Shown here in pieces: positions 15,440 through 40,345 of a DNA stretch of 64,000 bases. Below the pieces are notes generated by a model. The model searched no databases. It saw only the letters and a list, made by a program, of their open reading frames with translations, and was not told the DNA's origin. Position 1 is the first letter of the stretch, and each line of letters begins with the position of its first letter. Position numbers and translations under genes: made by a program. Location: NCBI GenBank assembly GCA_964593675.1, contig CAZQIE010000004.1, positions 7,267 through 71,266 of the forward strand. The letters are read 5' to 3'. The stretch comes from an uncultured Opitutales bacterium (GTDB taxonomy: Bacteria; Verrucomicrobiota; Verrucomicrobiia; Opitutales; CAZQIE01).

Positions 15440-16438
15440 ATGACTTCCCTCTGTGCTCTAGTCTGCGGCGGCGGCGGCTTCATCGGCGGCCACCTCGCCA
15501 AGCGCCTCCTCGACGACGGCCTCCAGGTCCGCTGCGTCGACATCAAGCCCCTCTCCGAGTGGTACCAGGTCCACCCCCGCGCCGAAAACCTCGTCCTCGA
15601 CCTCCGCCTCGCCGACGCCTGCGGCATCGCCACCTCCGGCATCGACCACGTTTACAACCTCGCCGCGGACATGGGCGGCATGGGCTTCATCGAAAACAAC
15701 AAAGCCCTCTGCATGCTCAGCGTGCTCATCAACACGCACCTCCTCATGGCCTCCCGCGAGGCCCGCGTAAAACGCTTCTTCTACGCCTCCTCCGCCTGCG
15801 TTTACGCCGCCGACAAGCAGACCACCACCGAAAACCCCGGCCTCAGGGAGTCCGACGCCTACCCCGCCATGCCCGAAGACGGCTACGGCTGGGAGAAGCT
15901 CTTCTCCGAACGCATGTGCCGCCACTTCACCGAAGACTTCGGCCTTGAGACCCGCGTCGCACGCTTCCACAACGTCTACGGCCCCTTCGGCACCTATGAC
16001 GGCGGCCGCGAAAAAGCCCCGGCCGCCATCTGCCGCAAAGTCATTTCCGCAAAACTTAATAAGCAGGACTCCATCGAGATCTGGGGCGACGGCCTCCAGA
16101 CCCGCAGCTTCATGTACATTGATGACTGCATCCGCGGCATCCTCGAGCTCATGCACAGCAACGTCCGCGAGCCCCTGAACCTCGGCAGCGCCGAAATGGT
16201 CTCCATCAACCAGCTCGTCGAGATCGTCGAAAACATCGCCCACCTCTCCCTCAAGCGCCGTTACAAGCTCGATGCCCCCAAAGGCGTGCGCGGCCGCAGC
16301 AGCGACAACACCCTTTTCCGCAGCCATTTTGGCTGGGAGCCCTCGACCACCCTCCGCGCAGGCCTCGAAAAAACCTACGCCTGGATCGAAGCGGAAATGC
16401 AGAAGGCTCACTCCCCCTTTGCGCACGCCCATGGCTAA
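15440..16438 (+). CDS. gme: GDP-mannose 3,5-epimerase-like SDR
   Basis: GGGGFIGGHL, VYNLAADMGGMGFI, RFFYASSACVY, the YGWEK catalytic Y-x3-K, FHNVYGPFGT..GGREKAPAA.CRK, WGDGLQTRSF and GVRGR.SDN are collinear with plant and bacterial GME. Confidence 0.85.
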   Translation: MTSLCALVCGGGGFIGGHLAKRLLDDGLQVRCVDIKPLSEWYQVHPRAENLVLDLRLADACGIATSGIDHVYNLAADMGGMGFIENNKALCMLSVLINTHLLMASREARVKRFFYASSACVYAADKQTTTENPGLRESDAYPAMPEDGYGWEKLFSERMCRHFTEDFGLETRVARFHNVYGPFGTYDGGREKAPAAICRKVISAKLNKQDSIEIWGDGLQTRSFMYIDDCIRGILELMHSNVREPLNLGSAEMVSINQLVEIVENIAHLSLKRRYKLDAPKGVRGRSSDNTLFRSHFGWEPSTTLRAGLEKTYAWIEAEMQKAHSPFAHAHG

Positions 16439-17786
16439 CGCCACCCCTCTCTTTCCCCAAGGCTGGTCCCCCAGCCGCCTCTCTGTCGTCGGCCTCGGCA
16501 AGCTCGGCAGTTGCATGGCCGCCGCCTTCGCCTCCCGCGGCTTCGACGTCATCGGCGTCGACGTCAACACACGCACCGTCGACCTCGTCGGCCGCGGCGA
16601 AGCCCCCGTCGTTGAGACCGGTCTCGCGGACATGCTCCGCGACAACCGCCAGCGCCTCCGCGCCACCACCTCCCATGACGAGGCCATCGACCAGACCGAC
16701 GCCACCTTCGTCATCGTACCCACCCCCAGCGACGCCAACGGCTCCTTCTCCACCCAATACGCCGCCTGGGCCTTCCAGGAACTCGGCGCCTCCCTCAGGA
16801 AAAAAGCCGGCAAGCCCCACCTCTTTGTGATGACCAGCACCGTCCTCCCCGGCGCCTGCCGCGACGTGCTCGTCCCCACCCTCGAAAAAGCCTCCGGCCT
16901 CAAGGCGGGCCGCGATTTCGGCTTCTGCTACTCCCCCGAATTCATCGCCCTCGGCAGCGTCATCCGGGACTTCCTCAACCCCGACTTCACCCTCGTCGGC
17001 GAATGGGACGCCCCCTCCGGCGCCGCCCTGGAAGCCATCTACAAACGCGTCCTCCTCAACGGCGCCCCCTGCCGCCGCATGAGCGTCGAGAACGCCGAGC
17101 TCGCCAAAGTCTCCCTCAACGCCTACGTCACCCTCAAGATCACCTTCGCCAACATGCTCGCCGAGGCCTGCGCCAAGCTCCCCGGCGGCGATGTCGACGC
17201 CGTGACCCAGGCCCTCGGGTTTGACCGCCGTATCGGCTCCCGCTACCTCCGCGGCGGCTCCAGCTTCGGCGGCCCCTGCTTCCCGCGCGACAACCGCGCC
17301 CTCGCCCATGCCCTCGGTGAGCTCGGCGTGCCTCAGGATCTCCCCCTTACCACCGACCGCCTCAACGAAACCTGGATCGACCGCACCACCGACCGCGTCG
17401 CCTTCCTCGTGCCTGCCGGCTCCACCGTCACGCTCCTCGGCCTCTCCTACAAGCCCGCGTCCCCGGTCCTCGAAGCCTCGGCCTCCCTCGCGCTCGCCGA
17501 GCGCCTCAGCTCACGCGGCTTCCGTGTCGTCGCGCACGACCCCCTCGTCCCGACCAACGCCTTCACCGGCCACCAGCGCATCGTCATGCAGTCCGACGTC
17601 CGCGCCGCCCTCCATAAGGCCAGCCTCGTCCTCGTCGCCAACCCGGACCCCGCCTACGAAGCCCTCCGCGAAGCCGACTTTGCCGACTGCGCCCCCGACG
17701 TCATCGTCTTCGACCTCTGGCGCCTCCTGCGCCCGCACCTCGCCAAGAGCACCAAGCTCCGCTACATCGCGCACGGCGTCGCCTGA
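16431..17786 (+). CDS. Nucleotide-sugar 6-dehydrogenase (UDP-glucose/GDP-mannose dehydrogenase family)
   Basis: The internal ATG at 16431 overlaps the gme stop by 8 nt. N-terminal Rossmann VVGLGKLGSCMAAAFASRGFDVIGVD, central NAELAKV..NAY, and a catalytic-cysteine region GGSSFGGPCFPRD. Confidence 0.85.
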   Translation: MANATPLFPQGWSPSRLSVVGLGKLGSCMAAAFASRGFDVIGVDVNTRTVDLVGRGEAPVVETGLADMLRDNRQRLRATTSHDEAIDQTDATFVIVPTPSDANGSFSTQYAAWAFQELGASLRKKAGKPHLFVMTSTVLPGACRDVLVPTLEKASGLKAGRDFGFCYSPEFIALGSVIRDFLNPDFTLVGEWDAPSGAALEAIYKRVLLNGAPCRRMSVENAELAKVSLNAYVTLKITFANMLAEACAKLPGGDVDAVTQALGFDRRIGSRYLRGGSSFGGPCFPRDNRALAHALGELGVPQDLPLTTDRLNETWIDRTTDRVAFLVPAGSTVTLLGLSYKPASPVLEASASLALAERLSSRGFRVVAHDPLVPTNAFTGHQRIVMQSDVRAALHKASLVLVANPDPAYEALREADFADCAPDVIVFDLWRLLRPHLAKSTKLRYIAHGVA

Positions 17787-17804
17787 CCTTCCTCTCCCTC
17801 CCCC

Positions 17805-18959
17805 ATGAGCAACGCCGGCACTCTCGATACCTACAACGCCGACATCCAGAAGCGCCTCGGCGCACGTTGGCCCCATAACGCCGAGGTTGCCCAAACCCGC
17901 CTCCTTACCGCCTGGGCAAGCGGCCTCGAACGCCCCGAGTCCATCGCCCTCGAAGGCGTCGCCGCCGCCGGCTTCCGCTTCCTTGAAGGCGGCCACCCCG
18001 AACTCGCCCGCCGCGTCCTCCCCCTTCTCGATTCCCCCGAGTTCGAGTTCGACCGCCGCTTCCTCGCCCACCGCTGCGGCCTCACCGACACCCTCCCGCC
18101 ACGCATCCCTTTCCTCCTCGCCACCCACGCCGGCGAAATCCCCAACCCCGATTCCATGGCCCGCCAGACCGCCGCCATGGACCGCCTTGCCGCCGTCGCC
18201 CGTGAAGACGGCGCCATCCATACCCTCAACATCCGTTACAAAGAGGAAAAGTCCGCGCACCCCGCGCTCCCCGACTCCTACCTCGAACGCTCAGGCCGCG
18301 ACCTCCTCGGCCCTGAAGTCCGCCGCCTCCCCATCATGCGCGAAGTCTTCGACCGCGCAGCCGACGCCGCCCACCGCGCAGGCCTCGAATATTTCGGGTT
18401 CATGAACGGCGACATCCTCATGCACCGCGACGCCATCGTCCTCGCGCGCATGTATATGGAACACGGCTTTGAAGCCCTCGCCTTTGTCCGAACCGACATC
18501 CCCGCACTCAGCCGAGAATCCCCCGCGGACTGGCTTGAAGTCCACCTCTCCGGCGCAGACCTCTTCATCTTCAAGACCTCCTGGTGGCGCCAGTACAACG
18601 ACCTCCTGCGCGACTACATCATGTCCTGCTACTGGTGGGACCGCGTTCTCATGGGCCTCATGGTCCTCTACGGCCGCGCCGCCTATGTCGCCCACGTCCG
18701 CGGCCTCATGTTCCACCCCGTCCACACCCGCGTTTCCACCACCCGCCCGGACGTTGCCCACAACACCAACCTCTGCATGCGCGAGGACTCCTTCTACTAC
18801 GACCTCAACTGCGCCTACATCCGACGCCTCGAAGAGTTCCTCGGCAAACAGCGCTCCCTTCCCACCTTCAAGGCCAACCAGGAACTCTACGAACCCAGCA
18901 GCCTCGTCGACTTCCGCCGGCGCCTCCGCCCAGACCTCTTCAAAACACCGGCCAAATGA
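17805..18959 (+). CDS. Hypothetical protein (possibly GT-A-like), conserved operon member
   Basis: ATG at 17805, 384 aa, normal composition. Its stop overlaps the next start (ATGA). No diagnostic motif; FGFMNGDILM and GADLFIF faintly resemble GT-A DxD and acceptor regions. Confidence 0.6.
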   Translation: MSNAGTLDTYNADIQKRLGARWPHNAEVAQTRLLTAWASGLERPESIALEGVAAAGFRFLEGGHPELARRVLPLLDSPEFEFDRRFLAHRCGLTDTLPPRIPFLLATHAGEIPNPDSMARQTAAMDRLAAVAREDGAIHTLNIRYKEEKSAHPALPDSYLERSGRDLLGPEVRRLPIMREVFDRAADAAHRAGLEYFGFMNGDILMHRDAIVLARMYMEHGFEALAFVRTDIPALSRESPADWLEVHLSGADLFIFKTSWWRQYNDLLRDYIMSCYWWDRVLMGLMVLYGRAAYVAHVRGLMFHPVHTRVSTTRPDVAHNTNLCMREDSFYYDLNCAYIRRLEEFLGKQRSLPTFKANQELYEPSSLVDFRRRLRPDLFKTPAK

Positions 18960-20587
18960 CAGACCTTGAGGAAGAGCTTTCCGGTCTTGAAGCCCTCGCC
19001 GCAGGCGCAGACACCGACCCCGCGCCCGCCGGTCTCCTTGCCCTCGCCCGCGCCTCCTGCGCCGCGGACTCCGCCTGGGCCGAGGCCTTCCTCAACCTCC
19101 TCGACACCCACCGCTCCATCGCGGTCGCCCTCCTTGTCTGGCGCCGCGCGGCCGCCTCTGGCGCCACCGCGCTCGCCGAAGCCGCCGCCTCCATCCTCTC
19201 CCGCCGCGTGCCTGACCTCCCCGAAGTCGCCGCGCTCCTCCAGCGCCGCGCTGACGACGGTTCCCGTCCGCCCCCCGTTGCCGCGCCTTTCTATCCCCTT
19301 GCTCCCCGCGCGTGGAACCCCTTTTGCGGAGACGAGTCCATCCCCCTCCGCGCCCTAGCAGGGTGGGGGGGCATCCATGCCGTTCAAACCCTCTGGGTCG
19401 TCGGTGCCCACGAGTTCCGCGAGCACGCCACCTACCGCAGGCTCTTTCCCTCCCTCCGCAACATCGTCCTCTTCGAGCCAAATCCCCGCCTCGTCGCCAG
19501 CCTCCGTGAGTCCTGCGCCCACTCCGGCGTAACCCTCGTCCCCTGCGCCCTCTCGGATCACGACGGCTCCGCTCGCCTCAAGATCAGCTCCAACGAAGGA
19601 CTCTCCAGTTCCCTTTTTGATTTCGGCCTCCACAGCCAGGCCGCGCCCGACGTCACCTTTGTCGAAGAAGTCGCAGTCTCCGTCCGCCGCGTGGATTCCG
19701 TCCTCGCGGAGCACCGCCTCCCCCTGCCGGACGTCCTCGTGATCGACGCCCAGGGCGCCGAGGACAAGATCCTCTCCGGCACCCCCGCTGCCGTACTGGA
19801 GCACGCCCGCGTCATCTACGTCGAAACCAGCAAGGCCGAAGTTTACCGCGGCGGCACCTCTTACCACGCCGTACAGCAGCGCCTCAGCCCCACCCACCGC
19901 TACGTCGCCTTCGCCTCCATCCCCGGCCACCACGGCCTCCACGGCAACTCCCTCTTTGTCCGACGCCTCGGCCGCACCGCCGCGCCCGCCCCGGTCGCCC
20001 CGGCGGACCCCTTCGCCCACGCGCTCAGCCTCGCCCGTCAAGGCCTCCTCCGCGCCGCCGCCCGCCTCTTCGACGCCTCCACCCATCCCAACGCCGCCCG
20101 CAACGTCGCCACACTCGAGGCCCTCATCGCCGCCCCCGCACTCCCGGCCACCGCAGCCCTCGTTGACGAACTCGACCAGCCCGTCCCCCTTGTCGGTGCG
20201 GAAGCCCGCCCCCTCTGGTCCCTTACCCCCGCGGACGCCGCCACGCTCCGCCTCGCCCTCACCGCCGATTTCTTCGGCGCCACCCGCCCGGACGTCTCCT
20301 CCCGCCCCCTCTACCTCTGGGGCGCCGGCGCAGGCGGACGCCGCGTCCTCGCTCTGTGCCGCGCCGTCGGCCTCAACGTCGCCGCCCTTGTTGACCGCGA
20401 CCCCGCAAAACACGGCTCCACCCTCGAAAGCCTCGCCGTCGTCTCCCCCGACGCCCTCAAAGCCGCCCAGCCGCGCCCCTTCGTCATCATCGCTTCCATG
20501 TACGCCCCCGAAATCGCCCGCCAACTGCGCGGCCTCGGTTTTGGGCAGGCGGACTTCTGCATCCCCGCACCCTTTTTCCAGCCATGA
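18956..20587 (+). CDS. FkbM-family methyltransferase fused to a C-terminal Rossmann-like module
   Basis: The true start is ATG 18956 (ATGA overlap); the upstream 124 codons of the track ORF are P/R-rich overlap. The central region LWVVGAHEF..VLFEPNP..PCALSDHDG..VIDAQGAE..IYVE is FkbM-like. The C-terminus is LYLWGAGAGGRRVLALCRAVGLNVAALVDRDPAKHG. Confidence 0.75.
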   Translation: MTDLEEELSGLEALAAGADTDPAPAGLLALARASCAADSAWAEAFLNLLDTHRSIAVALLVWRRAAASGATALAEAAASILSRRVPDLPEVAALLQRRADDGSRPPPVAAPFYPLAPRAWNPFCGDESIPLRALAGWGGIHAVQTLWVVGAHEFREHATYRRLFPSLRNIVLFEPNPRLVASLRESCAHSGVTLVPCALSDHDGSARLKISSNEGLSSSLFDFGLHSQAAPDVTFVEEVAVSVRRVDSVLAEHRLPLPDVLVIDAQGAEDKILSGTPAAVLEHARVIYVETSKAEVYRGGTSYHAVQQRLSPTHRYVAFASIPGHHGLHGNSLFVRRLGRTAAPAPVAPADPFAHALSLARQGLLRAAARLFDASTHPNAARNVATLEALIAAPALPATAALVDELDQPVPLVGAEARPLWSLTPADAATLRLALTADFFGATRPDVSSRPLYLWGAGAGGRRVLALCRAVGLNVAALVDRDPAKHGSTLESLAVVSPDALKAAQPRPFVIIASMYAPEIARQLRGLGFGQADFCIPAPFFQP

Positions 20588-21858
20588 GCCGGCTCGCCGT
20601 CATCGTTCCCAACTACAACCACGCCGAGTACCTGCCCGACGCCCTCAACGGCATCGTCTCGCAGACCCGACTCCCCGACGATGTCCTCATCGTCGACGAC
20701 TGCTCCACCGACAACAGTTGGGAAGTCATTCTCGATTGGCAGCGCCGCTTCCCCAACCTCATCCGCGCCGTCCGTAACGAAAAAAACCTCGGCGCCCTCG
20801 GGAACCAGAAACGCGGCCTCGAGCTCACCCAGAGCGACTACATCTACCTCCATTCCGCCGACGACCTCGTCGAGCCCGACTGCTTCGAAGTCTACACCCG
20901 CCTCCTTGACCAGCACCCGCAGGCTCCCCTCGTCGCCAGCCGCACCGTCGTCTTCAAGGAAAACAAAACGGACGCCGTATACGAAGCCGGCCGCTGGTGC
21001 CCCTCCGAAGGCTACCATGGCCCCGAAGAATGCGCCCGCGAGCTCCGCTCACGCTTCTTTTGCAGCGGCCAGGTCATGTACCGCCGCCACGCCCTAGATG
21101 AAGCCGGCGGCTTCCACTACGACCTCGGCAATTTCTGCGACTGGTTCTGGCTCCACTGCAACATGCTCCGTCACGGCATGTGCTTCACCCCAAGACCCGT
21201 CACTGTCTTCCGCCTCGTTGAAAGCTCCTTCTCGGCCACGCAGGACCGCGACCAACAGCGCCGCCTCAAGGCCGCACGCTACCTCCTGAACCTCCTCTCC
21301 GAACCCCGCTTCGCCGACGTCCTCCCGCGCTTCGCGGAAAGCGGCGTCATCCTCCAGCTTGGCGACGCCGTCGCCCACGCCATCCTCTCCGAGCCCCGCT
21401 GGTGGACACCCCAGATGTTCGCCCTCGCCTACGGCAACCTGCACGAGTGGGCCGAGCAAAACCGCCGCATGCGCCTCCAGGGCTTCCGCGTCTTCTCCGA
21501 GCCCACGCTCGAAGAAAAGATCGCGCCCGTCGCCATGCAGGCCATCGCCAAGTGCAACAGCCGCCGCGTCTCCAACGTCGCCTTTTACGGCGCCGGCACC
21601 CACACCAAAACCCTCATGGCCCAGTGGAAGCGCCTCGGCGGCCCCGCTCCCACCTGCATCCTCGTCTCCCGCAAGGCACCCGGACAAGACACCTTCGAAG
21701 GGCTCCCCGTCGTCTCCGCCCTCGAAGCCACCTTTGCGCCCGGCACCCTCGTCATCCTCTCCTCCATGAACTACGAGCGAGACATGGCCGCTGTCCTCCG
21801 CGCCGCGCACCCCGACGTCCCCTTCATCGCCCTCTGGGACCCCTCCCTTGGCCTCTGA
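20584..21858 (+). CDS. Family 2 glycosyltransferase with a C-terminal Rossmann-like module
   Basis: ATGA overlap at 20584. VIVPNYNHAEYLPDALNGIVSQT..DDVLIVDDCSTDNS and HSADD are GT2 motifs. The C-terminal VAFYGAGTHTKTLMAQWKRLG ... FEGLPVVS module recurs elsewhere in the locus. Confidence 0.85.
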   Translation: MSRLAVIVPNYNHAEYLPDALNGIVSQTRLPDDVLIVDDCSTDNSWEVILDWQRRFPNLIRAVRNEKNLGALGNQKRGLELTQSDYIYLHSADDLVEPDCFEVYTRLLDQHPQAPLVASRTVVFKENKTDAVYEAGRWCPSEGYHGPEECARELRSRFFCSGQVMYRRHALDEAGGFHYDLGNFCDWFWLHCNMLRHGMCFTPRPVTVFRLVESSFSATQDRDQQRRLKAARYLLNLLSEPRFADVLPRFAESGVILQLGDAVAHAILSEPRWWTPQMFALAYGNLHEWAEQNRRMRLQGFRVFSEPTLEEKIAPVAMQAIAKCNSRRVSNVAFYGAGTHTKTLMAQWKRLGGPAPTCILVSRKAPGQDTFEGLPVVSALEATFAPGTLVILSSMNYERDMAAVLRAAHPDVPFIALWDPSLGL

Positions 21859-22876
21859 AGCTCCCAGCTCCCGCCCCTACGTCAGCATCGTCGTCGTCTC
21901 CCGCAACGACGACCACGGCGGCAAACTCATGGAGCGCCTCGGCGCGTTCTGGGAAAACGTCACCCACTTCGCACCCCGCTCCGGCCTTCGCCTCGAAGTC
22001 GTCCTCGTCGAGTGGAACCCGCCCGCCGACCGCCCACCTCTCGCTGACGTCCTCCCCATTCCCGCCTTCCGCGACGGCCTTGACCTCCGCATCGTCACCG
22101 TCCCCGAAGCCGTCCACCGCCGCATCCCGCGCTATTTCAACATCCCGCTCTTCCAAATGATCGGGAAGAACGTCGGCATCCGCCGCGCCCGCGCAGACTA
22201 CGTCCTCGTCACCTGCAACGACCTCATCTTCACCGAAGCCCTCTACCACTTTCTCGCCGCGCGCGTCCTTGACCCCTCCCGCACCTACCGCCTCGACCGC
22301 TTCGACCTCCCCGTGCGCGAGCTCCCTCCCCTCGGCCCCCAAGGCCGCCTCGATTTTTGCGCCACCCAAACCTGCACCGTCTGCGGCGCCCGTGACCGTG
22401 AGGGCATAACCGCCATCACCTTTGACGGCCCCCGCCACGCCTTTCTCCGTGCCGACCCCCAAGCCCTGCGCCGCTTCGCCAACGCCGGCCTCGGCTACCC
22501 CCTTCACACCAACGCCTGCGGCGACTTCACCCTCATGGCCCGCGACGCCTGGTTCGCCCTCCGCGGCCATAACGAGCTTCCCCTCGGCGACGTCTACGTT
22601 GACGGCCTCGTGAACTTCGCCGCCGCCGCCCTCGGCCTCAGGCAGGTCTACCTCGGCGACCCCGTCCGCGCCTACCACATCGCCCACGGCCTCAACTGCA
22701 CCATCGACATCGAGCAGCGCCGCCGCCACCGGCCCTCCCTCAACTACGCCCTCGACTACGTCCCCTGGTGCGAAGCCATCCTCCGCAACAGCGCCCCCAT
22801 GAACGTCAATAACGACGACTGGGGCCTCGCCTACGAAGACCTCCCCGAAACCTGGCTCTGCCGCGCAGGCAGGTAG
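21848..22876 (+). CDS. GT2-like glycosyltransferase
   Basis: TTG start at 21848, an 11-nt overlap; no in-frame ATG precedes the conserved YVSIVVVSRNDDHGG region. VTCNDLIF is a DxD-like motif. Confidence 0.65.
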   Translation: MASEAPSSRPYVSIVVVSRNDDHGGKLMERLGAFWENVTHFAPRSGLRLEVVLVEWNPPADRPPLADVLPIPAFRDGLDLRIVTVPEAVHRRIPRYFNIPLFQMIGKNVGIRRARADYVLVTCNDLIFTEALYHFLAARVLDPSRTYRLDRFDLPVRELPPLGPQGRLDFCATQTCTVCGARDREGITAITFDGPRHAFLRADPQALRRFANAGLGYPLHTNACGDFTLMARDAWFALRGHNELPLGDVYVDGLVNFAAAALGLRQVYLGDPVRAYHIAHGLNCTIDIEQRRRHRPSLNYALDYVPWCEAILRNSAPMNVNNDDWGLAYEDLPETWLCRAGR

Positions 22877-22964
22877 GGCAGGGGCCCACGCCCGGCACCG
22901 CAGCTATCCGCCTCCCCTCCAATTTCCACAACGTTCCGCGCACATATCTAGCCCTCCCAAAAGC

Positions 22965-23822
22965 ATGAGCCGTTACACAAAGGAAGAGAAACTCGCCGCC
23001 ATCTCAAAGCACACCTGGTACCACAGGATCGACCTCGGCGACGGCGTCGTCACCCCCGGCCACGATTGGGAGCACCTCTGGAATATGATCCGCGCCGTGC
23101 GCTCCAAAGTTTCCTACGCGGAACGCGCCGTCCTTGATGTTGGCAGTTGGGACGGCCTCTGGGCCTTCGAAGCCGAAAAACTCGGCGCCCGCTACGTCGT
23201 CGCCACCGACTGCGCTCCCGCTCACCCTCTCGAAAACACGTGCGTCGACGCCAAAATGCCTCACGCCCTCGAGAAGTTTCTCCTGCTGCGCGAAATCCTC
23301 GGCAGTAAAGTCATCCCCTTCTACAACGCCTCCCCCTACAACCTCACCCAGCGCCTTGATTCCCTCATCTTCCTCAAGGCGAATTGCGAACACCTCAAGT
23401 TCGACATCGTTCAGCACTTCGGCGTCCTCTACCACCTCCGCAACCCCCTCCATTCCCTCTCGGAAGCCCGCAACGTCCTCAAAGACAACGGCACCCTCAT
23501 CCTTGAGACAGCCTGCCTCCTCAACGAGCCCCGTTCCGTCATGCTCTTCAACGGCGCCGGCGAGCCCAGCACGCTACGCTTCTATAAAGGCCGCACAAAC
23601 TGGTGGGCCCCCTCTTGGCTCTGTCTGAAAGAGATGCTCCAAACCTGCTTCCTCGAACCCCTCGAAGATACCGCCGAATTCCTTACCGTCGCCGGCTATG
23701 GCGACGTCGGCCGCGTGGCCGTGGCGTGCAGGGCCATCCCGGTAACTGAAGGCGATGCCAGGCTCCGCGCAGAAATGGCCCACTATTTCCGCAACCCCGA
23801 CCACATCCCGTATTTCGCCTAG
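22965..23822 (+). CDS. Class I SAM-dependent methyltransferase (CmoB/DUF1698-like), copy 1
   Basis: WYHRIDLGDGVVTPG, motif I VLDVGSWDGLWAFEAEKLGA, and FDIVQHFGVLYHLRNPL. The stop TAG at 23820-23822 is formed at the junction with the MITE-like element. Confidence 0.8.
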   Translation: MSRYTKEEKLAAISKHTWYHRIDLGDGVVTPGHDWEHLWNMIRAVRSKVSYAERAVLDVGSWDGLWAFEAEKLGARYVVATDCAPAHPLENTCVDAKMPHALEKFLLLREILGSKVIPFYNASPYNLTQRLDSLIFLKANCEHLKFDIVQHFGVLYHLRNPLHSLSEARNVLKDNGTLILETACLLNEPRSVMLFNGAGEPSTLRFYKGRTNWWAPSWLCLKEMLQTCFLEPLEDTAEFLTVAGYGDVGRVAVACRAIPVTEGDARLRAEMAHYFRNPDHIPYFA

Positions 23823-24134
23823 AGCGTATTCAGTTCAAGTTGTCGCGCCTGTTGGACATCCCTCCTTCATCCGCGCCGACGTGAGGAAGGGGCGTCCCCA
23901 CTGCCAAGGGCCGCATTCCGAGCCGTGCAGATGAACGAATCGGCCCACGCCGTGCGCCCAGCACCCGTGTCTTAGCGGAGCGGCAGATATGCCCGTGCAG
24001 CCCACCAGAATCGGCCCACGCCGTGCGCCCAGCACCCGTGTCTTAGCGGAGCGGCAGACTCGCCCGTGCAGCCCACCAGAATCGGCCCACGCCGTGCGTG
24101 GCGGCGCACGCGACAACCTGAAACCAAACTGCTC
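23822..24134. mobile_element. MITE-like palindromic element (copy 1, 313 bp) with TA flanks and internal tandem repeats
   Basis: Left end gagcgtattcagTTCAAGTTGTCGCG. The reverse complement of the right end is gagcagtttggtTTCAGGTTGTCGCG. TA lies at 23820-21 and 24135-36. The element fills the whole gap between two convergent genes. Confidence 0.6.
23922..24105 (+). repeat. Tandem repeat, about 70-bp unit x 2.7, containing three perfect ATCGGCCCACGCCGTGCG cores
   Basis: The unit gcccgtgcagcccaccagaatcggcccacgccgtgcgcccagcacccgtgtcttagcggagcggcaga starts near 23922, 23991 and 24062. The whole unit is conserved, so there are no unique spacers. Confidence 0.85.
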
Positions 24135-25468
24135 TATTTCTTCACCGCAAGGAAGCGCAGGAACATCCCCGCCACCTCTGTGCAGGCGTCGTCCGAGATG
24201 ACTGTCACCTCGAAGCCGCGCCGCGTGAAGAACGCCATCAGGCTTTCGGGCTCGAAGAAATGCCCCACCGAGGCAATACCTGCCGTGTTGTTGATTGTCT
24301 CGTGATAAGGCTTTGTCCGGTACGTCCCCTTCTCGTCGCTCATTTCCTCATACGGGTATGACGGCAGCGTCTCACTCGCGCAGAACCCCCCGATGTAGAT
24401 CCGGTCCGAAAGCGTCGTCAGGTTCTCAAGCAACAGCAGCGGGTGAGGGGAGTGGTAGTATGAACCATGGCAAACGACCAGGTCATACCGCCCGTACCGC
24501 CTCGCATCAGCATTGAGGAAGTCGTCCGTGAAAACACGCACATGATCCCAGCCCATCGCGTTGCACAACGTCGACGTCTTCAGCACGTTTTCCGCACGCC
24601 CTTCGACGCAGTCCAACTGTGCCACGCCGGCGCGCACAAGCGCCGCCGTCTGGTAGCCCTCCCACGGACCAAATTCGAGCACCCGCAAGCCCTTCAGCGG
24701 CACCAGCGCGTCCACGCGGTCCGTCATCCCCCATTCCCGCCCGCTCGCATACAGGCCCAGCAGTTCCTCCAATGTCTTCGCCCGATACGTGAAGTGCTGC
24801 CACAAATGCGCGATCTGCGCAAAAGGCCACAGCACCTGATGCAGTGAAACCATCCGGCACGGCAACTCCTTCGCCAGTTCCGAGACCTGCGACCATTCCC
24901 CGTTGTTCACCGGGTGGCGCGCAAGCACCGCAAGCTCCGACTTCCCAAAACCCGCCGGCGCGAAATCACCGAACGCCCAATCCACCACCCGCACCCGGGC
25001 GTCCTTTGCCCCCGCTGCCGCCAAGCCTTCGCGGATCGCCCGCGCTTCGCCCAGCAGCCAGATCACCTTCGCCTTCTCCTTCTTCAACCGCTCCAGCACC
25101 AGCGTCCAGCAGTGCTGTGAGTTCTCAATCGTCCGCACCGCCGCAGCGTCCCGGTCCAACGCCCATAGCGCCGCCGACTGTATCTTCCATTTCGATATAC
25201 CAAGCTCATTTACAAGCTGGTTCCGGATCGCCTCCTCCGCCTGCGAAGCAATGAGAATCGTTTCGCAATCCAGCGTCTTCAACTCCACCGGAGAGATCAC
25301 AGGCTTCCCGCAGACCACCGTCCCGTGCTTCGCCGCGTCATTGTCCGCAAAACAGCAAATATCGAAAACCTGCGACAAACCCTCAAATGACGCCTGCCCT
25401 GCTACGCCTGCACCAAAAACGACCGCCTTCACGCGGTTGCCAAATGTCCTCCGGGAACCGTTCTGCAT
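24134..25468 (-). CDS. Three-part protein: N-terminal Rossmann-like module, unknown middle region, C-terminal class I methyltransferase
   Basis: The internal ATG at 25468 gives MQNGS..KAVVFGAGVAGQASFEGL..FADNDAAKHGTVVCGKPV. The C-terminus has LRVLEFGPWEGYQTAAL and DLVVCHGSYYHSPHPL. The stop TAG is the complement of 24134-24136, at the MITE edge. Confidence 0.7.
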   Translation of the reverse strand: MQNGSRRTFGNRVKAVVFGAGVAGQASFEGLSQVFDICCFADNDAAKHGTVVCGKPVISPVELKTLDCETILIASQAEEAIRNQLVNELGISKWKIQSAALWALDRDAAAVRTIENSQHCWTLVLERLKKEKAKVIWLLGEARAIREGLAAAGAKDARVRVVDWAFGDFAPAGFGKSELAVLARHPVNNGEWSQVSELAKELPCRMVSLHQVLWPFAQIAHLWQHFTYRAKTLEELLGLYASGREWGMTDRVDALVPLKGLRVLEFGPWEGYQTAALVRAGVAQLDCVEGRAENVLKTSTLCNAMGWDHVRVFTDDFLNADARRYGRYDLVVCHGSYYHSPHPLLLLENLTTLSDRIYIGGFCASETLPSYPYEEMSDEKGTYRTKPYHETINNTAGIASVGHFFEPESLMAFFTRRGFEVTVISDDACTEVAGMFLRFLAVKK

Positions 25469-25660
25469 GGGAAATGGGGGAATTCTGGATCCGACCTTAT
25501 TGCCGGCATCCGCTCTCTCCCACTGGACCCCGAAACGCCCCCTCCCGTCAAACCTTATAGCGCGTCCCCAATCAGGCTTGCGGGCATTTCGCGCCAGCCT
25601 TTTCCTCAATCCATCCACACGCGCGCGCACCGCGTCCCCTCAACTTCCCCCTCCCAAATC

Positions 25661-26518
25661 ATGAGCCGTTACACCAAGGAAGAGAAAATCGCCGCCATCT
25701 CCAAATACGCATGGTACCACCGCATCGACCTTGGCGACGGCGTCGTCACTCCCGGCAACGAGTGGGAACACCTCTGGAACATGATCCGCGCCGTCCGCTC
25801 GAAAATCGCCTATGAGCAACGCGCCGTTCTCGACATCGGCAGCTGGGACGGCCTCTGGGCCTTCGAAGCCGAAAAGCTCGGCGCCCGCTACGTTGTCGCC
25901 ACCGACTGCGCACCCGCCTACCCGTTCGAGAATACGGGCGTCGACTGGCAGCACGCCCTCGAGAAATTCCTTCTCCTGCGCGACATCCTTGGCAGCAAAG
26001 CCATCCCCTTCTACAACGCCTCCCCCTACAACCTCACCCAGCGCCTCGACTCCCTCATTTTCCGCAAGACCGGCTGCGAGCACCTGAAGTTCGATATTGT
26101 CCAGCACCTCGGCGTCCTCTACCACCTCCGCAACCCCCTGCACGCGCTTTCCGAGGCCCGCAACGTCCTCAAAGACAACGGCACCCTCCTCGTCGAGACC
26201 GCCTGCATCCTCGACGAGCCCCGCTCCGTCATGCTCTTCAACGGCGCCGGAGATCCCAAAACCTTCCGCATCTGTGCGGACCGCAGCACCTGGTGGGCGC
26301 CCTCCTGGCCCTGCCTCAAGGAGATGCTCCAGACATCCTTCTTCGAGCCCCTTGAAGACACCGTCCAATTCCTCCCGCTGAAAGGTCAGCCCCAAGACAA
26401 CATCGGCCGCGTTGCCGTCGCCTGCCGGGCCGTTCCCGTCGACAAGGGCGACCCCGCCCTTCGCGCCGAAATGGCCCATTACTTCCGCAATCCCGACCAC
26501 ATTCCCTTCTTCGGCTAA
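25661..26518 (+). CDS. Class I SAM-dependent methyltransferase (CmoB/DUF1698-like), copy 2
   Basis: 285 aa, the same length as 22965-23822 and roughly four-fifths identical by eye along the full length. The stop TAA at 26516-18 again abuts a MITE-like element. Confidence 0.8.
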   Translation: MSRYTKEEKIAAISKYAWYHRIDLGDGVVTPGNEWEHLWNMIRAVRSKIAYEQRAVLDIGSWDGLWAFEAEKLGARYVVATDCAPAYPFENTGVDWQHALEKFLLLRDILGSKAIPFYNASPYNLTQRLDSLIFRKTGCEHLKFDIVQHLGVLYHLRNPLHALSEARNVLKDNGTLLVETACILDEPRSVMLFNGAGDPKTFRICADRSTWWAPSWPCLKEMLQTSFFEPLEDTVQFLPLKGQPQDNIGRVAVACRAVPVDKGDPALRAEMAHYFRNPDHIPFFG

Positions 26519-26640
26519 AGCGTTTCTGCTTCAACTTGTCGCGCTGTTCCCTTCATTCCGTTACTCGCGCCGACGCGAGGATGGGGCGCCCACGCTCGCC
26601 GCAGGGCCGGCGTATGCGACACCCTAAGGCAGAAGTGCCC
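26518..26640. mobile_element. MITE-like element (copy 2a)
   Basis: aagcgtttctgcTTCAACTTGTCGCG left arm, gcgccgacgcgagg core, degenerate right arm gcgacaccctaaggcagaagtgccc. TA at 26516-17 and 26641-42. Confidence 0.5.
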
Positions 26641-26642
26641 TA

Positions 26643-26725
26643 AAGCACATCCCGTTCAACTTGTCGCACCTGTCGGATATCCCACCATCCACGCCGACGC
26701 GAAGTTGATTCCTCCTGAAACTTCT
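26643..26725. mobile_element. MITE-like element (copy 2b, truncated or degenerate right end)
   Basis: aagcacatcccgTTCAACTTGTCGCA left arm and cacgccgacgcgaag core immediately after the shared TA. The right boundary is unclear. Confidence 0.35.
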
Positions 26726-26763
26726 GGGGCGTATCCGGTTCACGGATACGCCCCTTTCTCTTT
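26726..26763 (+). terminator. Perfect 12-bp hairpin plus T-rich tail
   Basis: ggggcgtatccg gttca cggatacgcccc followed by tttctcttt. It lies between convergent genes and directly abuts the stop of the minus-strand gene at 26762, so it may act in both directions. Confidence 0.6.
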
Positions 26764-28222
26764 ACGAAAACGTAAGGCGCCGCGCCCCGGGGAACAGCCG
26801 GGCCATTGTCCGCCGCACGTCTTTCTCATTGTGCGTCCGCGGCACCAGGATCAGCGAAGGGCTCATGCCGCTCGCCGCGGCCTCGCTCGCCTCGCGCACC
26901 GGAACGCCTTCCAGCTCCGCCACCCCGGTCCGTTTGATCGTCAGCAAATACGCGGGCTTGGGCAGCCCCAGTTCCCTGAGCGCATCCAGAAGTTCCAGCG
27001 TATGCGCGTCAGCCCCGCAGGCAGCCAGCCCAGCGCCCGCCTCAGCGATCCTCCGCCGCACGCCCGGGTCTGCCAGATTCTTGCGTAGCCGCGCCGCCCC
27101 TTCCTCCGGCCAAAACGTTACCTGCGACGCCTCCGGGAACAGCAACTTCGCCGCCACGCACATCTGCGTGGCATACAGCCTCGACGAAATCAGCACCAGC
27201 CCCGGCTTCTCCACCGCACCCGCAGCTGCCTCCGACGCCTTCAGCACCCGCAGCCCCTCGAACTCAGCCTCCTTTGGCGTATCCGTTGTAAGGATGTACG
27301 CTGGCCGCGGCATTGAGGCCTCCTCCAATGCCCTCAAAAGCTCCTGCGTATGCCCGCCGGCTCCGTACACCGCCAGCGGCCCCTTTGCCCGCATCACGCG
27401 AATCCTGAACTCCGGCGACGCCACCACAGTCCGCACCTGCGTCAGGATCTCGTTCCCTCCCGGCGCCGTCTTTACCCACATCGGCCGGTACACACCTTGC
27501 ATGACCGGTTTCCCGAACGTGGCGTTCGGGCGCTTCTCGGCAACGCACACAATCGCGTACATGTCGTTGCCCTGACCCGCCCGCCCATACGAAATACCGT
27601 CCATCGCCCCCGGATAGTAATCCGCGTACCACGCCGGATCGCTCGCATGGTTCTCCGTGTACCGGAACACCTGCATCGTCGGCACCCCGTACCCATTCGC
27701 GCTGTAATAGTCCCAATACATCGTCGGGCACATCATGTACATCCCGTGGTCGATGTGGTTGCTCGACGGCGTCAGATGCATGATCCGGCCCCCTGGCGCC
27801 GTCAGGTGGTGCAGACACGCCAGCGCGTTCGGTACGTTGAAAATGTGCTCCAGCGTCCCCCCGTCGTAGATCAGGTCAAATGCCCCGCGCCAGGCCTGTG
27901 GCGGCTCCGGGTCATTTAAGTCGTGGATGATCTCCGGTTCCTCATACGCCGAGTAATCCATGGCCAGCACCGCGTCGAACCCGAGCGCCTGGAACAGCGT
28001 CCGCTGGGAAATGTAACCCTTCGCGCCCAGCTCCACGCTCTGCGACAGCTCATACTCGGCCTCGGCCATCCGCAGCGGATACCCATATATGGCAGCCAAC
28101 GTCTCCACCTCCTCGCGCGTTGCATACACAAACTGGTGCCCCAGCGTGAGCACCTTCCCCTGGAAAGGCCGCCTCAGCCCTTCCTTCATCAATACCGCGA
28201 TATCTTTGCGTGCGATGCCCAT
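26762..28222 (-). CDS. Methyltransferase-like N-terminal domain fused to two tandem Rossmann-like modules
   Basis: The N-terminus has FDLIYDGGTLEHIFN..LTAPGGRIMHLTP (class I MTase motifs post-I to III; motif I is atypical, VLTLGHQ). The C-terminus has LAVYGAGGHTQELLRALEE..FEGLRVL and LAACGADAHTLELLDALRE..LEGVPV. Confidence 0.7.
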   Translation of the reverse strand: MGIARKDIAVLMKEGLRRPFQGKVLTLGHQFVYATREEVETLAAIYGYPLRMAEAEYELSQSVELGAKGYISQRTLFQALGFDAVLAMDYSAYEEPEIIHDLNDPEPPQAWRGAFDLIYDGGTLEHIFNVPNALACLHHLTAPGGRIMHLTPSSNHIDHGMYMMCPTMYWDYYSANGYGVPTMQVFRYTENHASDPAWYADYYPGAMDGISYGRAGQGNDMYAIVCVAEKRPNATFGKPVMQGVYRPMWVKTAPGGNEILTQVRTVVASPEFRIRVMRAKGPLAVYGAGGHTQELLRALEEASMPRPAYILTTDTPKEAEFEGLRVLKASEAAAGAVEKPGLVLISSRLYATQMCVAAKLLFPEASQVTFWPEEGAARLRKNLADPGVRRRIAEAGAGLAACGADAHTLELLDALRELGLPKPAYLLTIKRTGVAELEGVPVREASEAAASGMSPSLILVPRTHNEKDVRRTMARLFPGARRLTFS

Positions 28223-28246
28223 ATAAATTCAAAGGTTCCTGTATCG

Positions 28247-29233
28247 TTATTTCTGTTTTCCCAGGCACTCGAACCACTGCGCCGTGGCCTGTGCGATCGA
28301 CTGCGGGTCCCACAGCGGCGCATCCTTCCAGTCGTCGATCCGCTCCAACATACGCTGCACACCCGCCTCCAGCGGCACCCGAGGCTCCCACCTCAGCGCC
28401 TTCCGGATCGCCGAAATGTCCGCAAACGTGCAATCCGGCTCCCCGGGCCGCTTCGGCAAGTGCGTCACCGGCCCACCCAGCAGCTCCACAAGCCGGTTCA
28501 CCGCATACGTGTGCCCCGACCCGACATTCAGCCGCACCCCCGTGACGTCCGATTCCGCCGCGGCCACAAACGCCTCCGCCACGTCCGTCACAAACGTAAA
28601 GTCCCGCGTCTGTTTCCCGTCGCCCACAACCGTGTAAGGCTTGTTCGCCAGCTTTTGGCGCAGGAACACCCCGAACACCGCGCCGTAGGCGCCTGTCGTG
28701 CGGCTCCGCGGCCCATAAACGTTGAACAGGCACAACGACAGCGCCGGAACCCCGTAAACCTTGTTCCAGTGGAACACCAGTTGCTCGCCCAGATACTTCG
28801 TCAACGCATACGGGTGCTCCGGTTTCGCCGGCGCCGACTCCGGCGTCGGGTACACGTCCGGAATCCCATAGCACGTCGAACTCGCCGTATATACAAAGCG
28901 CTTCACGCCCACCTGTCGCGCCACCTGCAGCACGCGCAGCGTCCCCTCTGCGTTCACCGAAAAATAATCCTCCGGCTTCTCAATCGACGGCACCAAGTCC
29001 GCACGCCCCGCCAGGTGGAAGAACCATTCCGCCCCCTCCACATCCGCGGCTTCCAGCGCCTGCACCGGCTTCTGCACCAGCCGGAACCCCGCCTTCTCCC
29101 GCGCCAGCGCAAGGTTCCCCGGCCTTCCCGTCGAGAAATCATCCACCCCCACCACGCTGTGCCCACGCGCCAGCAGGAGATCCGTCAGGTGACTGCCAAT
29201 AAACCCGGCCGCGCCGGTGACCACGCATTTCAT
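28247..29233 (-). CDS. NAD-dependent sugar epimerase/dehydratase (extended SDR)
   Basis: VTGAAGFIGSHL, ASSTCYG, and catalytic YALTK. 328 aa. Confidence 0.85.
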   Translation of the reverse strand: MKCVVTGAAGFIGSHLTDLLLARGHSVVGVDDFSTGRPGNLALAREKAGFRLVQKPVQALEAADVEGAEWFFHLAGRADLVPSIEKPEDYFSVNAEGTLRVLQVARQVGVKRFVYTASSTCYGIPDVYPTPESAPAKPEHPYALTKYLGEQLVFHWNKVYGVPALSLCLFNVYGPRSRTTGAYGAVFGVFLRQKLANKPYTVVGDGKQTRDFTFVTDVAEAFVAAAESDVTGVRLNVGSGHTYAVNRLVELLGGPVTHLPKRPGEPDCTFADISAIRKALRWEPRVPLEAGVQRMLERIDDWKDAPLWDPQSIAQATAQWFECLGKQK

Positions 29234-29344
29234 GTGTATCAGGTTTTTGAATACGAGGGTATGCGCCTGCCCGCAGCGTGAACGCCCGCGCCCGCCCGCC
29301 CAAAATCTCCCGCTCCCGCGGTCACTCCTTTCGGGCCGGCTCGC

Positions 29345-30913
29345 CTAGAACGTCAGCATTGCCATCCCGCTCTTCAACAGGCGGGCCTTCTTGATGCAGT
29401 CGCGGTTACCCACAATGCACACCGCCTGCGCCCCGGCAAGCTGGCTGTTGAACGTCGCCAGATCCAGCGGCAAGCCCGCCGCCGCCGACAACGACCCCAC
29501 CGCGCAGAACGCATCACCCGCGCCGATCGTGTCCACCGCCGTTGACTCGAACGGCGGAACCCGGCACGGCGGCTCATCCCCGTTAAGACCTATCGTCTCC
29601 ACCTCGCCCAGCGTCAGCCACGCATACTTCGCCCCAAGGTAGTCCTTCAACCGCGCCAGTTCCTCCGCGTGGTTGAACTCCTTGCGCCCGCAAGCCAGCG
29701 TCAGCTCCGTGCGGTCCAAGCTGAACGTGTCCGCCCGGTTCCACCGCCGGTTGATGATGTTGAAACCGTAATTGTTGCTGTTCGTCTGGCAATTCAGGGA
29801 AAGGAACCGCGACTTCTCCTCCAGCAGCAGCCGCACCGGGTCCTGATGCACCCCGTGCCCGAAGTCCATCGCGATCACCAGATCGTAATCCCCGATCACC
29901 GACTCCAGCCGCGACCGCATCCGTTCCACCATCTCCGGGCTCGGGTGTGTCGCGTCGATATAGTTTACCGAGAAAAGCTTGTTCATCTCGCGGCCCGTTT
30001 TCACAGGCTCCACGAACCGCTGCTTCACGATCGTCGTCACGTCCTCGCGCTGCACCAGATCGCTCTCCGTAGGCAGGTGCTCCCGCAGCAGCCCCTCCAC
30101 CCAAGGCTCCTTCCCCACATAAGCCATCAGGTGCGCGTGCGGCGTGAACTCCCTCACATGGCGGAAGACAGCCAGCGCGCCGCCAGCCTGCATCTCGTCC
30201 GCCACAAACCGCCCCGACAACATCCGGTTCTTCGACGTCAGCCCTTGCACCGACACCGTCGTATACCGGTCAAAAATGATATCCCCGACCACCAGCACCT
30301 TCAGCTTCGCCAGCCCATCCACCAGCTCGCGGAACCGCTGCGGCGTGAACCGCTGCGCCACGCGCCGGCAAAAGTCCTTCACGCTCGAAGGCACCGGATC
30401 AAAATGGTTGTTAAGGATGCGCGTGGAGCTGAACACCACGCTCCCCACGTAGCGCATCTCGCCCCCCAGCCGCTCCACCGTCAGCACGTCGTCGCGGATG
30501 TTTCCCGTCACATCCGTGCCCTCGTCCATGTATTCCCGCCCCTTGCAGTACACATGCGGGCACACGCACTCGATCGCCTCCACCGCCGCCGGGAACGGGA
30601 TCACCACCACAAAGTCCACACACGCCAGCGCGCTCAGCGCCTTCACCCGAAGCGCATTGTTAAAATACGGACGCCCCGGACCCTTGTTCACCATCCGCTC
30701 ATCCGTGATCGTCACCACCAGCACGTCCCCGTGCTCCCGTGCTTCCTCAAAATGGATGATGTGACCCGGGTGTACCAAGTCGAACGTGCCGTGGCATTGC
30801 ACGATCCGTTTCCCCTGCTCGCGCAGCGCGCGGAAAAACCCCGGCGCCTCCCCGAACGGCACTTCCTTTGCCGCCGTCCCCTTGCCATCAAAATCACGTT
30901 TTACCTGGAGCAT
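29345..30913 (-). CDS. Bifunctional sugar-phosphate nucleotidyltransferase (N-terminal) / PfkB-family sugar kinase (C-terminal), HldE-like with reversed domain order
   Basis: The N-terminal CHGTFDLVHPGHIIHFEEA is a cytidylyltransferase-fold HxGH motif. The C-terminal DTIGAGDAFCA is the PfkB signature. It overlaps the gmhA stop by 13 nt. Confidence 0.8.
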   Translation of the reverse strand: MLQVKRDFDGKGTAAKEVPFGEAPGFFRALREQGKRIVQCHGTFDLVHPGHIIHFEEAREHGDVLVVTITDERMVNKGPGRPYFNNALRVKALSALACVDFVVVIPFPAAVEAIECVCPHVYCKGREYMDEGTDVTGNIRDDVLTVERLGGEMRYVGSVVFSSTRILNNHFDPVPSSVKDFCRRVAQRFTPQRFRELVDGLAKLKVLVVGDIIFDRYTTVSVQGLTSKNRMLSGRFVADEMQAGGALAVFRHVREFTPHAHLMAYVGKEPWVEGLLREHLPTESDLVQREDVTTIVKQRFVEPVKTGREMNKLFSVNYIDATHPSPEMVERMRSRLESVIGDYDLVIAMDFGHGVHQDPVRLLLEEKSRFLSLNCQTNSNNYGFNIINRRWNRADTFSLDRTELTLACGRKEFNHAEELARLKDYLGAKYAWLTLGEVETIGLNGDEPPCRVPPFESTAVDTIGAGDAFCAVGSLSAAAGLPLDLATFNSQLAGAQAVCIVGNRDCIKKARLLKSGMAMLTF

Positions 30914-31497: not shown

Positions 31498-31690
31498 GCA
31501 AATGCGCCCTCCGGAAAAACGCCAAAAATCCCGCGTCCTCCTCGGGCAAGTGGGGAATAAGTCGTCAGGATTCTTCCGTTCTTCAGTCCTCGCGCAACGG
31601 AAAACGTGCCCTTGCCGCCAATCCTGAACCCACTCCCCCCTCGGCCACCTCCGCGACTCATGCCCAGGCCGTGCGACCCCCCCAAAAAAA

Positions 31691-31860
31691 AACGCGAAGC
31701 GGCAGCCCCCACCCGTGCAGCCCAACAGAATCGGCCCACGCCGTGCGTGCCAGCCCAGACCTTACCAAAACCGCCGCAGAAACGCGAAGCGGCAGCCCAA
31801 CCCGTGCAGCCCAACAGAATCGGCCCACGCCGTGCGTGGCGGCGTGCGTGGTTTGATCCG
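31691..31860 (+). repeat. Tandem repeat, about 90-bp unit x 2, with two perfect ATCGGCCCACGCCGTGCG cores
   Basis: The unit aacgcgaagcggcagccc..cccgtgcagcccaacagaatcggcccacgccgtgcg occurs at 31691 and 31781. Confidence 0.8.
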
Positions 31861-40288: not shown

Positions 40289-40345
40289 CTTTTTCTTCTC
40301 CCCAGCGCGGCTTCGCGTGTTTGCGGTAGCGGGTGATGGGGAGCT

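Follow-up and report, generated by a model that had tools for sequence, protein, structure and literature searches.

Five copies of one domain family

Why should a glycosyltransferase and three methyltransferases of one bacterial sugar gene cluster all carry the same kind of small domain? This question is raised by a locus of an uncultured Opitutales bacterium (contig CAZQIE010000004.1 of assembly GCA_964593675.1), of which we analyzed positions 7,267 to 71,266; this whole stretch of 64,000 nucleotides (nt) is called the window below. The domain, referred to here as the module, occurs at the C-terminus of an FkbM-family methyltransferase (copy M1), at the C-terminus of a GT2 glycosyltransferase (M2), at the N-terminus of the methyltransferase MT444 (M3) and in tandem at the C-terminus of the methyltransferase MT486 (M4 and M5). 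Little is understood of the accessory domains that bacterial glycan enzymes carry, and the related one of WbaP has only recently been tied to dimerization and uridine-nucleotide sensing. The original prediction, made from the sequence alone, described one Rossmann-like module of 60-80 amino acids (aa), likened it to the N-terminal subdomain of NeuD/PglD-type acyltransferases, and offered docking, oligomerization or nucleotide-sugar binding as its function. We found that the five segments, although diverged, belong to a single ancient Rossmann-like family with a unit of about 95 aa.

Pairwise comparison by blastp linked the copies within two groups. M4 and M5 matched at 54-60 bits (43% identity), M2 and M4 at 45 bits, M2 and M5 at 28-33 bits, and M1 and M3 at 31 bits; the groups themselves were weakly joined, M2 and M3 scoring only 16.5 bits. 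For a leave-one-out test, a hidden Markov model (HMM) was built from the remaining copies and compared with all 687 six-frame fragments of the window. The results showed that every omitted copy was the top match outside the training set, with expectation values (E) of 1e-9 for M1, 2e-11 for M2, 2e-14 for M4 and 1.5e-8 for M5, and that nothing else scored better than about 0.3. M3 was recovered weakly (E 0.17) and is assigned to the family because of its blastp link to M1 and the comparison of profiles. In that comparison, profiles of the two groups built from database relatives matched each other with 99.3-99.4% probability (E about 1e-20, about 90 columns), whereas linkers and unrelated parts of the same proteins stayed below 11%. 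The test is not fully independent, since both sets were recruited with a mixed profile; independent support comes from the solved domain 3NKL, which is the best match of both.

These results bear out the number and places of the predicted segments and their membership of one family, as they align under profile methods and are not linkers or unrelated domains. The unit, with five strands, is longer than predicted, and it is not uniform. Two subtypes can be told apart by their signatures, a K-type (GxGxxG...D.D..K.G; M1 and M3) and an H-type (YGAGxHT...GxPV...SS; M2, M4 and M5). In the six-frame translation, the predicted N-terminal motif was found at four places, all of them in the modules (mean in shuffled windows 0.68); the rest of the predicted pattern is less general, since M1 is without the G-x-P-V motif and M5 is degenerate. 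An HMM search of the linkers, the neighboring open reading frame ORF342 and all six-frame fragments revealed no sixth or cryptic copy in the window.

The nearest relatives of the window modules are modules of other organisms, at 43-50% identity (43% for M3, whose nearest relatives are K-type modules), with the exception of M5, whose best match anywhere is M4. It follows that the five copies diverged anciently and are old members of the family, and recent shuffling of copies within the locus was rejected on the same ground. To speak of one module reused, as the prediction did, is therefore misleading; M5 and M4 alone represent a local duplication.

Fold and solved relatives

AlphaFold2 modeled M2 alone with a predicted local distance difference test score (pLDDT) of 94.9 and a predicted template modeling score (pTM) of 0.87, and the M4-M5 tandem with a pLDDT of 93.7 and a pTM of 0.70. 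The models contain, in order, strand 1, the GAG loop, a helix, strand 2, a short hairpin with G-x-P-V, a strand, a helix and a strand, so that the Rossmann-like fold is confirmed at a pLDDT of 94-95, and the tandem scores suggest that the two copies of MT486 may form a defined two-module unit. In Foldseek searches, the tightest superpositions of M2 were those on the N-domain of VioB (7txp; TMq 0.62, root-mean-square deviation 2.4 A, 89 columns, probability 1.00, E 0.016) and on 3NKL (TMq 0.61, TMt 0.54), amid Rossmann NAD(P)-type domains generally. The M2 model, an alpha/beta domain of about 90 aa, thus superposes on a PglD_N-like domain, and other Rossmann domains behave similarly. The tandem model also matched KijD1/TcaB9, WbaP (8t53), 2g6t and tandem RCK domains.

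Searches of the PDB with profiles gave a similar picture. The K profile matched 3nkl (4e-13), the Rex domain (4e-9), a DapB-type reductase (1e-6), VioB (3e-6) and, at E about 0.009, residues 144-233 of the WbaP accessory domain, and the H profile matched 3nkl (4e-5), PglB (0.013) and PerB (0.017). A phmmer search of the PDB with the full-length FkbM protein gave zero matches. Residues 49-109 of the solved FkbM methyltransferase 2py6 matched the K profile weakly (E 0.1). The tandem match 2g6t, with a probability of 1.00, is an uncharacterized protein of C. acetobutylicum, which we take to be the possible source of the name of Pfam family PF22674 (C2185-like_N). PF22674 itself appears in precomputed annotations of module relatives and was rejected, as it was not significant in direct scans.

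Distribution and modularity

With the five-copy profile we searched 1.84 billion proteins, taking representatives at 50% identity and E of at most 0.001, and found that at least 2267 protein clusters match. Partners and subtypes were counted in the best 148 of these representatives, which hold 174 good domain instances: 74 are H-type (GxGxH[T/S]), 61 are K-type (D.D..K.G), 7 carry both signatures and 32 neither. The fusion partners are GT2 (34), GT1/GT4 (27), FkbM (10), radical SAM (4) and TagF-like proteins (4), along with various class-I methyltransferases, and LicD, WbsX and MptE-like proteins are present. GT2 favors the H-type (27:10) and FkbM the K-type (9:1), and the two conserved fusions of the window are therefore the common ones. 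Among relatives the module is found at either the N- or the C-terminus, and there are short Met-starting proteins of one or two modules only, which are apparently stand-alone, their C-terminal completeness being unconfirmed. In a protein of 1810 aa (P0022) the profile matched 12 stretches, each of them incomplete (profile positions 22-70), and a domain scan showed no full module; this may be a repeat protein with part of the pattern only.

The hosts differ in how widely their homologues keep the module. The FkbM host is a singleton cluster in NCBI, and its orthologues at two other loci, L001 and L005, retain the K module. The H module is retained in 6 full-length GT2 orthologues and absent from 113 of the 119 closest GT2 homologues. 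No module was detected in either of the two catalytic homologues of MT444, and 11 of the 12 homologues of MT486 are stand-alone methyltransferases of about 280 aa, the twelfth (P0011) carrying a single H module. The module is thus dispensable for these catalytic folds. The proteins of the region are singletons from one NCBI contig of 73.5 kb, and their nearest named relatives belong to Verrucomicrobia.

We also compared loci that encode several module-bearing proteins (carriers). L001 encodes a fused ORF384-FkbM-K protein and a GT2-H protein, with an ORF342 homologue also at the locus; L005 has an FkbM-K and two GT2-H proteins; and a metagenome-assembled genome of Verrucomicrobia (L003/L004) has three GT2 proteins with four H modules. 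Three or four carriers lie within 10-20 kb in Aminicenantes (L007/L011), and three within the same distance at the metagenome locus L009, while L006 has one carrier. Several carriers per locus are a recurring pattern in this small, partly orthologous sample; a search with a narrower alignment found only 2 genome loci and 6 metagenome loci, which is not enough for statistics on co-occurrence. Thousands of soluble glycosyltransferases and methyltransferases carry this sister of the WbaP-type domain, often as tandem copies and with several carriers at one locus.

Conserved crevice and predicted ligand site

We computed conservation over the 174 database copies with no motif filter. The highest values belong to the GAG loop, with 0.99 for its first Gly, 0.86 for the Ala and 0.97 for its second Gly, and to the Ser that closes strand 4 (0.90); the G-x-P-V hairpin (0.85, 0.77 and 0.70) and the Asp that closes strand 2 (0.71) come next. 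When the K profile was aligned with VioB by HMMER, the conserved columns corresponded to Gly8/Gly10, Asp32, Lys37, Gly39, Pro46-Val47 and Gly67-Ser68. In VioB, the ribose of deoxythymidine diphosphate (dTDP) is reported to be bound by Asp32 and Lys37, with Gly8 packed against it, and the pyrophosphate by two main-chain amides, those of Gly11 and Gly67 (PMC9271549). Since the conserved columns align with residues of the dTDP site, the family appears to conserve a crevice that binds a nucleoside diphosphate (NDP). Among the three functions offered by the prediction, nucleotide or nucleotide-sugar binding is for this reason the best supported.

The window copies keep this site to different degrees. 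M1 and M3 have the complete NDP-ribose set (GxGxxG, Asp, Lys and (A/S)-Ser), and the Asp, Lys and Gly of M1 align with D32, K37 and G39 of VioB. In M2 and M4 the loop, the His and the Ser-Ser are intact, but the Asp position is taken by Val or Thr. M5 deviates at two of the top-conserved positions of the family, having GAD instead of GAG and Pro-Arg instead of Ser-Ser, so that the strand-4-end Ser is absent. Binding has probably been lost in this second copy of MT486, which would then be the structural partner.

Relation to curated families and known systems

Only M1 passed a Pfam threshold. It matched PF08484 (Methyltransf_14) over model positions 73-160 of 160, at 29.8 bits for the isolated segment and 24.8 bits in the full protein (cut-off 23.5). 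M2 to M5 had no PF08484 match in the Pfam scan of isolated segments, and M2 had no Pfam match above threshold at all. The sole match to PglD_N (PF17836) was that of M4, at 16.4 bits, below the gathering cut-off of 23.4. The best scores against TIGR03570 (MT444 20.4, FkbM 19.1 and MT486 14.9 bits) did not reach the curated cut-off of 160.8; they come from M1, M3 and M4, are confined to model positions 2-85, and include a weak match of M3 to the N-terminal part (E 3e-4). Weak NCBIfam Rex matches were found, and for the isolated window segments PF13727 (CoA_binding_3) was not listed. In the 148 relatives, Pfam describes the module as Methyltransf_14 in 34 cases, PglD_N in 23 (E of at most 0.001) and CoA_binding in 9. 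Among H-type copies (n = 44), at most 15 had any Pfam match (E of at most 0.01) and about two thirds were unmatched, and these sparse matches mark the H-type as an essentially unmodeled branch of a known superfamily.

The module shares fold and size with the N-domain of PglD/PerB/VioB/NeuD (PF17836, TIGR03570), which in PglD, PerB and VioB holds the nucleotide moiety of NDP-sugars. The order of motifs is shared too: a hydrophobic strand, GAG(G)H, an acidic residue closing strand 2, G-x-P-V, and, where strand 4 ends, a small residue with a Ser. Unlike in those enzymes, no left-handed beta-helix or catalytic His follows the window modules. None of the four host proteins matches a hexapeptide or beta-helix family, as had been predicted, and each module stands at a protein terminus or before another module or a methyltransferase domain. 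The window modules also differ in being fused to GT2 or methyltransferases, at either terminus and in tandem, and their H-type copies are without the ribose-binding Asp and Lys. The predicted likeness to NeuD/PglD thus holds in the weak TIGR03570 and PglD_N scores, the profile matches to PerB, VioB and PglB and the superposition on VioB, but by their profile matches the K-type copies appear nearer to PF08484, 3NKL and Rex than to PglD_N.

In TcaB9 and KijD1, sugar C-methyltransferases, a domain of the module type forms the C-terminal part and holds the nucleotide. The sugar C-3-methyltransferases TcaB9, KijD1 and TylC3 (PF08484) likewise have the domain appended to a SAM methyltransferase in a sugar pathway; TcaB9 and KijD1 are fold matches of the tandem model, and 4rv9 is among the profile matches. 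However, the partner of the window modules is FkbM or another class-I methyltransferase without the zinc-ribbon part (M1 is joined to FkbM, PF05050, and the zinc-binding Methyltransf_13, PF08421, had no match), and PF08484 is matched over its second half only and fails to recognize four of the five window copies. The cytoplasmic domains of 3NKL (PglF/WbpM-type dehydratases) and of large phosphoglycosyl transferases such as WbaP (PF13727) are, like the module, accessory and non-catalytic parts of glycan enzymes, but WbaP and PglF are membrane-anchored and have the domain after a four-helix transmembrane bundle, whereas the window hosts are soluble and their modules terminal; a beta-hairpin swap element is not evident in the window modules. 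Rex, CoA_binding (PF02629) and tandem RCK domains are ligand-sensing Rossmann modules that form dimers or pseudo-dimers, as is proposed for the module, but the latter has no DNA-binding or channel partner. The top fold matches of the tandem model are the tandem RCK domains of GsuK, and their low TM-scores (0.35) indicate that the two-domain arrangement differs from that of M4-M5. The domain is of the PglD-N/PF08484/3NKL type in new, uncharacterized architectures, and its H-type branch is largely unmodeled. As an accessory family of glycan enzymes it is widespread but poorly annotated, only a minority of copies being recognized by Pfam, and defining it would improve the annotation of many proteins now described as a GT2 plus an unknown tail.

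Proposed role of the module

We propose, with a probability of about one half, that the module is a ligand-binding accessory domain that acts in pairs, as a sensor or a dimerizer. It would be an autonomous domain, and its ligand, a nucleotide or pyrophosphate, would occupy the crevice that the GAG loop forms with the strand-4 end. Pairing would come from two tandem copies in one chain or from dimerization of single-copy proteins, and the role would be regulatory rather than catalytic, coupling enzyme activity or assembly to a nucleotide or nucleotide sugar of the pathway, as reported for the WbaP domain with uridine monophosphate (UMP). This proposal draws on the conserved crevice, which points to ligand binding, and on features expected of a sensor, namely promiscuous fusion at either terminus, tandem and stand-alone forms, and dispensability. 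It is also in line with the degeneration of one tandem copy and with the precedent of the related WbaP domain, which forms a dimer interface, is stabilized by UMP and uridine di- and triphosphate (UDP and UTP), and has been proposed to act allosterically (PMC10942596). The module offers a tractable family for studies of binding and regulation.

Several points weigh against this proposal. All three H-type copies of the window are without the ribose-binding Asp and Lys, and their ligand is less certain, since only the phosphate-contacting loops and the conserved His are kept. The recruitment profile was built from the five window copies and inflates conservation at the positions that they share. 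The copy number per protein (one in 72, two in 65, three in 9 and four in 1 of 147 representatives) is biased upward to multi-copy proteins, as the representatives were ranked by whole-protein score. Finally, the Foldseek E values of the single module are weak (0.004-0.04), as is expected for about 100 residues, and generic NAD(P) Rossmann domains score equally.

The main rival, which we consider unlikely but still serious, is that the module belongs to the active site, where it would hold the NDP moiety of the sugar substrate, FkbM, MT444 and MT486 then being methyltransferases of NDP-sugars. Such a role fits the score of M1, which exceeds the Pfam threshold for the domain at the C-terminus of sugar C-methyltransferases (PF08484), the VioB dTDP-contact residues kept by the K-type copies, and the KijD1/TcaB9 structures with TDP or dTDP-sugars among the fold matches. 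The cluster at 15.4-31.7 kb would suit it too, being made up of soluble sugar-nucleotide and tailoring enzymes, with no transporter, polymerase or initiating transferase among the annotated genes. If the K-type does hold an NDP handle, FkbM and class-I methyltransferases would be predicted to act on nucleotide-activated sugars. A part of the active site is, however, hard to reconcile with closest catalytic homologues that have no module, with a position that varies between the termini, with one to four copies per protein and stand-alone forms, and with the approximately 110 residues that lie between the FkbM catalytic domain and M1. Moreover, the NDP-sugar donor of GT2 is already bound by its GT-A domain, and the H-type copies do not have the ribose-binding residues.

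The docking or oligomerization offered by the original prediction, in which contacts between modules would unite the GT2 and the methyltransferases in a hetero-complex and the ligand would be irrelevant, seems to us quite unlikely. Conservation is strongest on the ligand crevice (the GAG loop, the Asp and the strand-4-end Ser) and not on a surface patch. The recurrence of several carriers within 10-20 kb in unrelated lineages (L003, L005, L007/L011 and L009) is what docking would lead one to expect, but only one carrier is present at L006, the sample consists of few loci, most of which were found through orthologues of the window cluster, and co-occurrence of carriers is compatible with one complex without showing one. 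Tandem copies are frequent and the Rex domain also forms a dimer interface, which would agree with contacts between modules, as would the dimer interface of the related WbaP domain (PMC10942596). We consider improbable, and somewhat more so, a combined scheme in which the module reads a shared handle or serves as a pairing device, so that all tailoring enzymes would recognize one nucleotide- or pyrophosphate-anchored intermediate, or pair, in an ordered assembly line comparable to the docking domains of polyketide synthases, with the H-type as a new class of ligand specificity that is unmodeled in Pfam.

Binding of nicotinamide adenine dinucleotide (NAD(H)) or redox sensing of the Rex/CoA_binding kind, by which the K-type would tie glycan tailoring to the redox state, is highly improbable. 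The classical signature, GxGxxG with an acidic residue closing strand 2, is present in M1 (GAGAGG...VDRD) and M3 (GAGVAG...ADND), and the matches of the K profile include the NADH-sensing domain of Rex and the DapB-type reductase, to which the weak NCBIfam Rex matches and the 9 CoA_binding cases among the 148 relatives may be added. But M2, M4 and M5 fail this signature, as their loop reads GAGxHT or GADAHT and a V or T stands in place of the acidic residue; the best match of the K profile is 3nkl, and VioB and WbaP, which are sugar-nucleotide enzymes, match too. The fusion partners are all glycan enzymes, and the related WbaP domain is stabilized by uridine nucleotides (PMC10942596). Chance resemblance, linker or low-complexity sequence, to which the Ala/Gly-rich composition in a genome of 64-68% G+C and the weak recovery of M3 might have pointed, is refuted by the profile and structure results, with the blastp, leave-one-out, profile-profile and motif-shuffle tests all favoring homology, confident models of a folded domain and 2267 matching database clusters.

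The gene cluster and its surroundings

Table 1. Modules, host genes and neighboring genes in the window (numbering from the first letter of the window)
Feature	Position	Strand	Remarks
M1, K-type	20291-20584	+	FkbM C-terminus, aa 446-543; WGAGAGG ... VDRDPAKHG ... IIAS
M2, H-type	21559-21855	+	GT2 C-terminus, aa 326-424; YGAGTHT ... EGLPVV ... ILSS
M3, K-type	25154-25444	-	MT444 N-terminus, aa 9-105; FGAGVAG ... ADNDAAKHG ... LIAS
M4, H-type	27098-27394	-	first of the MT486 tandem, aa 277-375; YGAGGHT ... EGLRVL ... LISS
M5, H-type, degenerate	26765-27046	-	second of the MT486 tandem, aa 393-486; CGADAHT; VPR replaces SS
Host gene 1, FkbM-family methyltransferase	18956-20587	+	543 aa; PF05050, TIGR01444
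Host gene 2, GT2 glycosyltransferase	20584-21858	+	424 aa; PF00535, E 1e-27
Host gene 3, MT444, class-I S-adenosylmethionine (SAM) methyltransferase	24134-25468	-	444 aa; PF13489
Host gene 4, MT486, class-I SAM methyltransferase	26762-28222	-	486 aa; PF13489
ORF384	17805-18959		no family; 4-nt overlap (ATGA) with the FkbM start
ORF342	21848-22876	+	conserved; no Pfam or NCBIfam family
Two CmoB-like methyltransferases	22965-23822 and 25661-26518	+	PF08003/PF13489; proteins 80% identical

The cluster (15440-31725) consists of soluble enzymes only, including the GT2 and five methyltransferases. As MT444 and MT486 match the same Pfam family, the three methyltransferase hosts are not all unrelated, as had been supposed. 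The region is flanked by two NAD-dependent epimerases/dehydratases, a homologue of UDP-glucose/GDP-mannose dehydrogenase, a cytidylyltransferase-PfkB kinase fusion and a SIS-domain (GmhA-like) protein. In the fusion the cytidylyltransferase comes first, the reverse of the domain order in E. coli HldE. This enzyme content suggests a methylated heptose-type sugar.

Two genes without a family accompany the hosts elsewhere. At L001 (7253-9982), ORF384 and FkbM form one fusion protein of 909 aa, and further ORF384 paralogues are present in L001 and L005. A homologue of ORF342 lies directly 3' of the GT2-H gene in both L001 (51% identity) and L005 (41%).

The two CmoB-like genes are direct repeats (22952-23822 and 25648-26518) with 86-87% identical DNA. 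The similarity begins 13 nt upstream of the start codon, and the repeats flank the MT444 gene, which runs the opposite way. A unit of 71 nt occurs in two head-to-tail copies (96% identical) at 23937-24078, in the intergenic stretch from MT285a to the 3' end of the MT444 gene.

From position 1 to 35.9 kb of the window, the plus strand is strongly C-rich, with a GC skew of about -0.25 overall. At third codon positions the skew is -0.6 to -0.7 in plus-strand genes and about -0.4 in minus-strand genes, and because it is negative in both, it is independent of the coding strand. At about 36 kb (35900-36000) the skew flips sharply to +0.15 to +0.27, and from 47 kb onward it is about 0. An inversion could account for the switch, as could a chimeric contig or the origin or terminus of replication. 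The genes gyrB and gyrA lie at 48-4813, and the sole RNA gene found in the window is a tRNA-Leu(CAA) at 40204-40289 on the plus strand.

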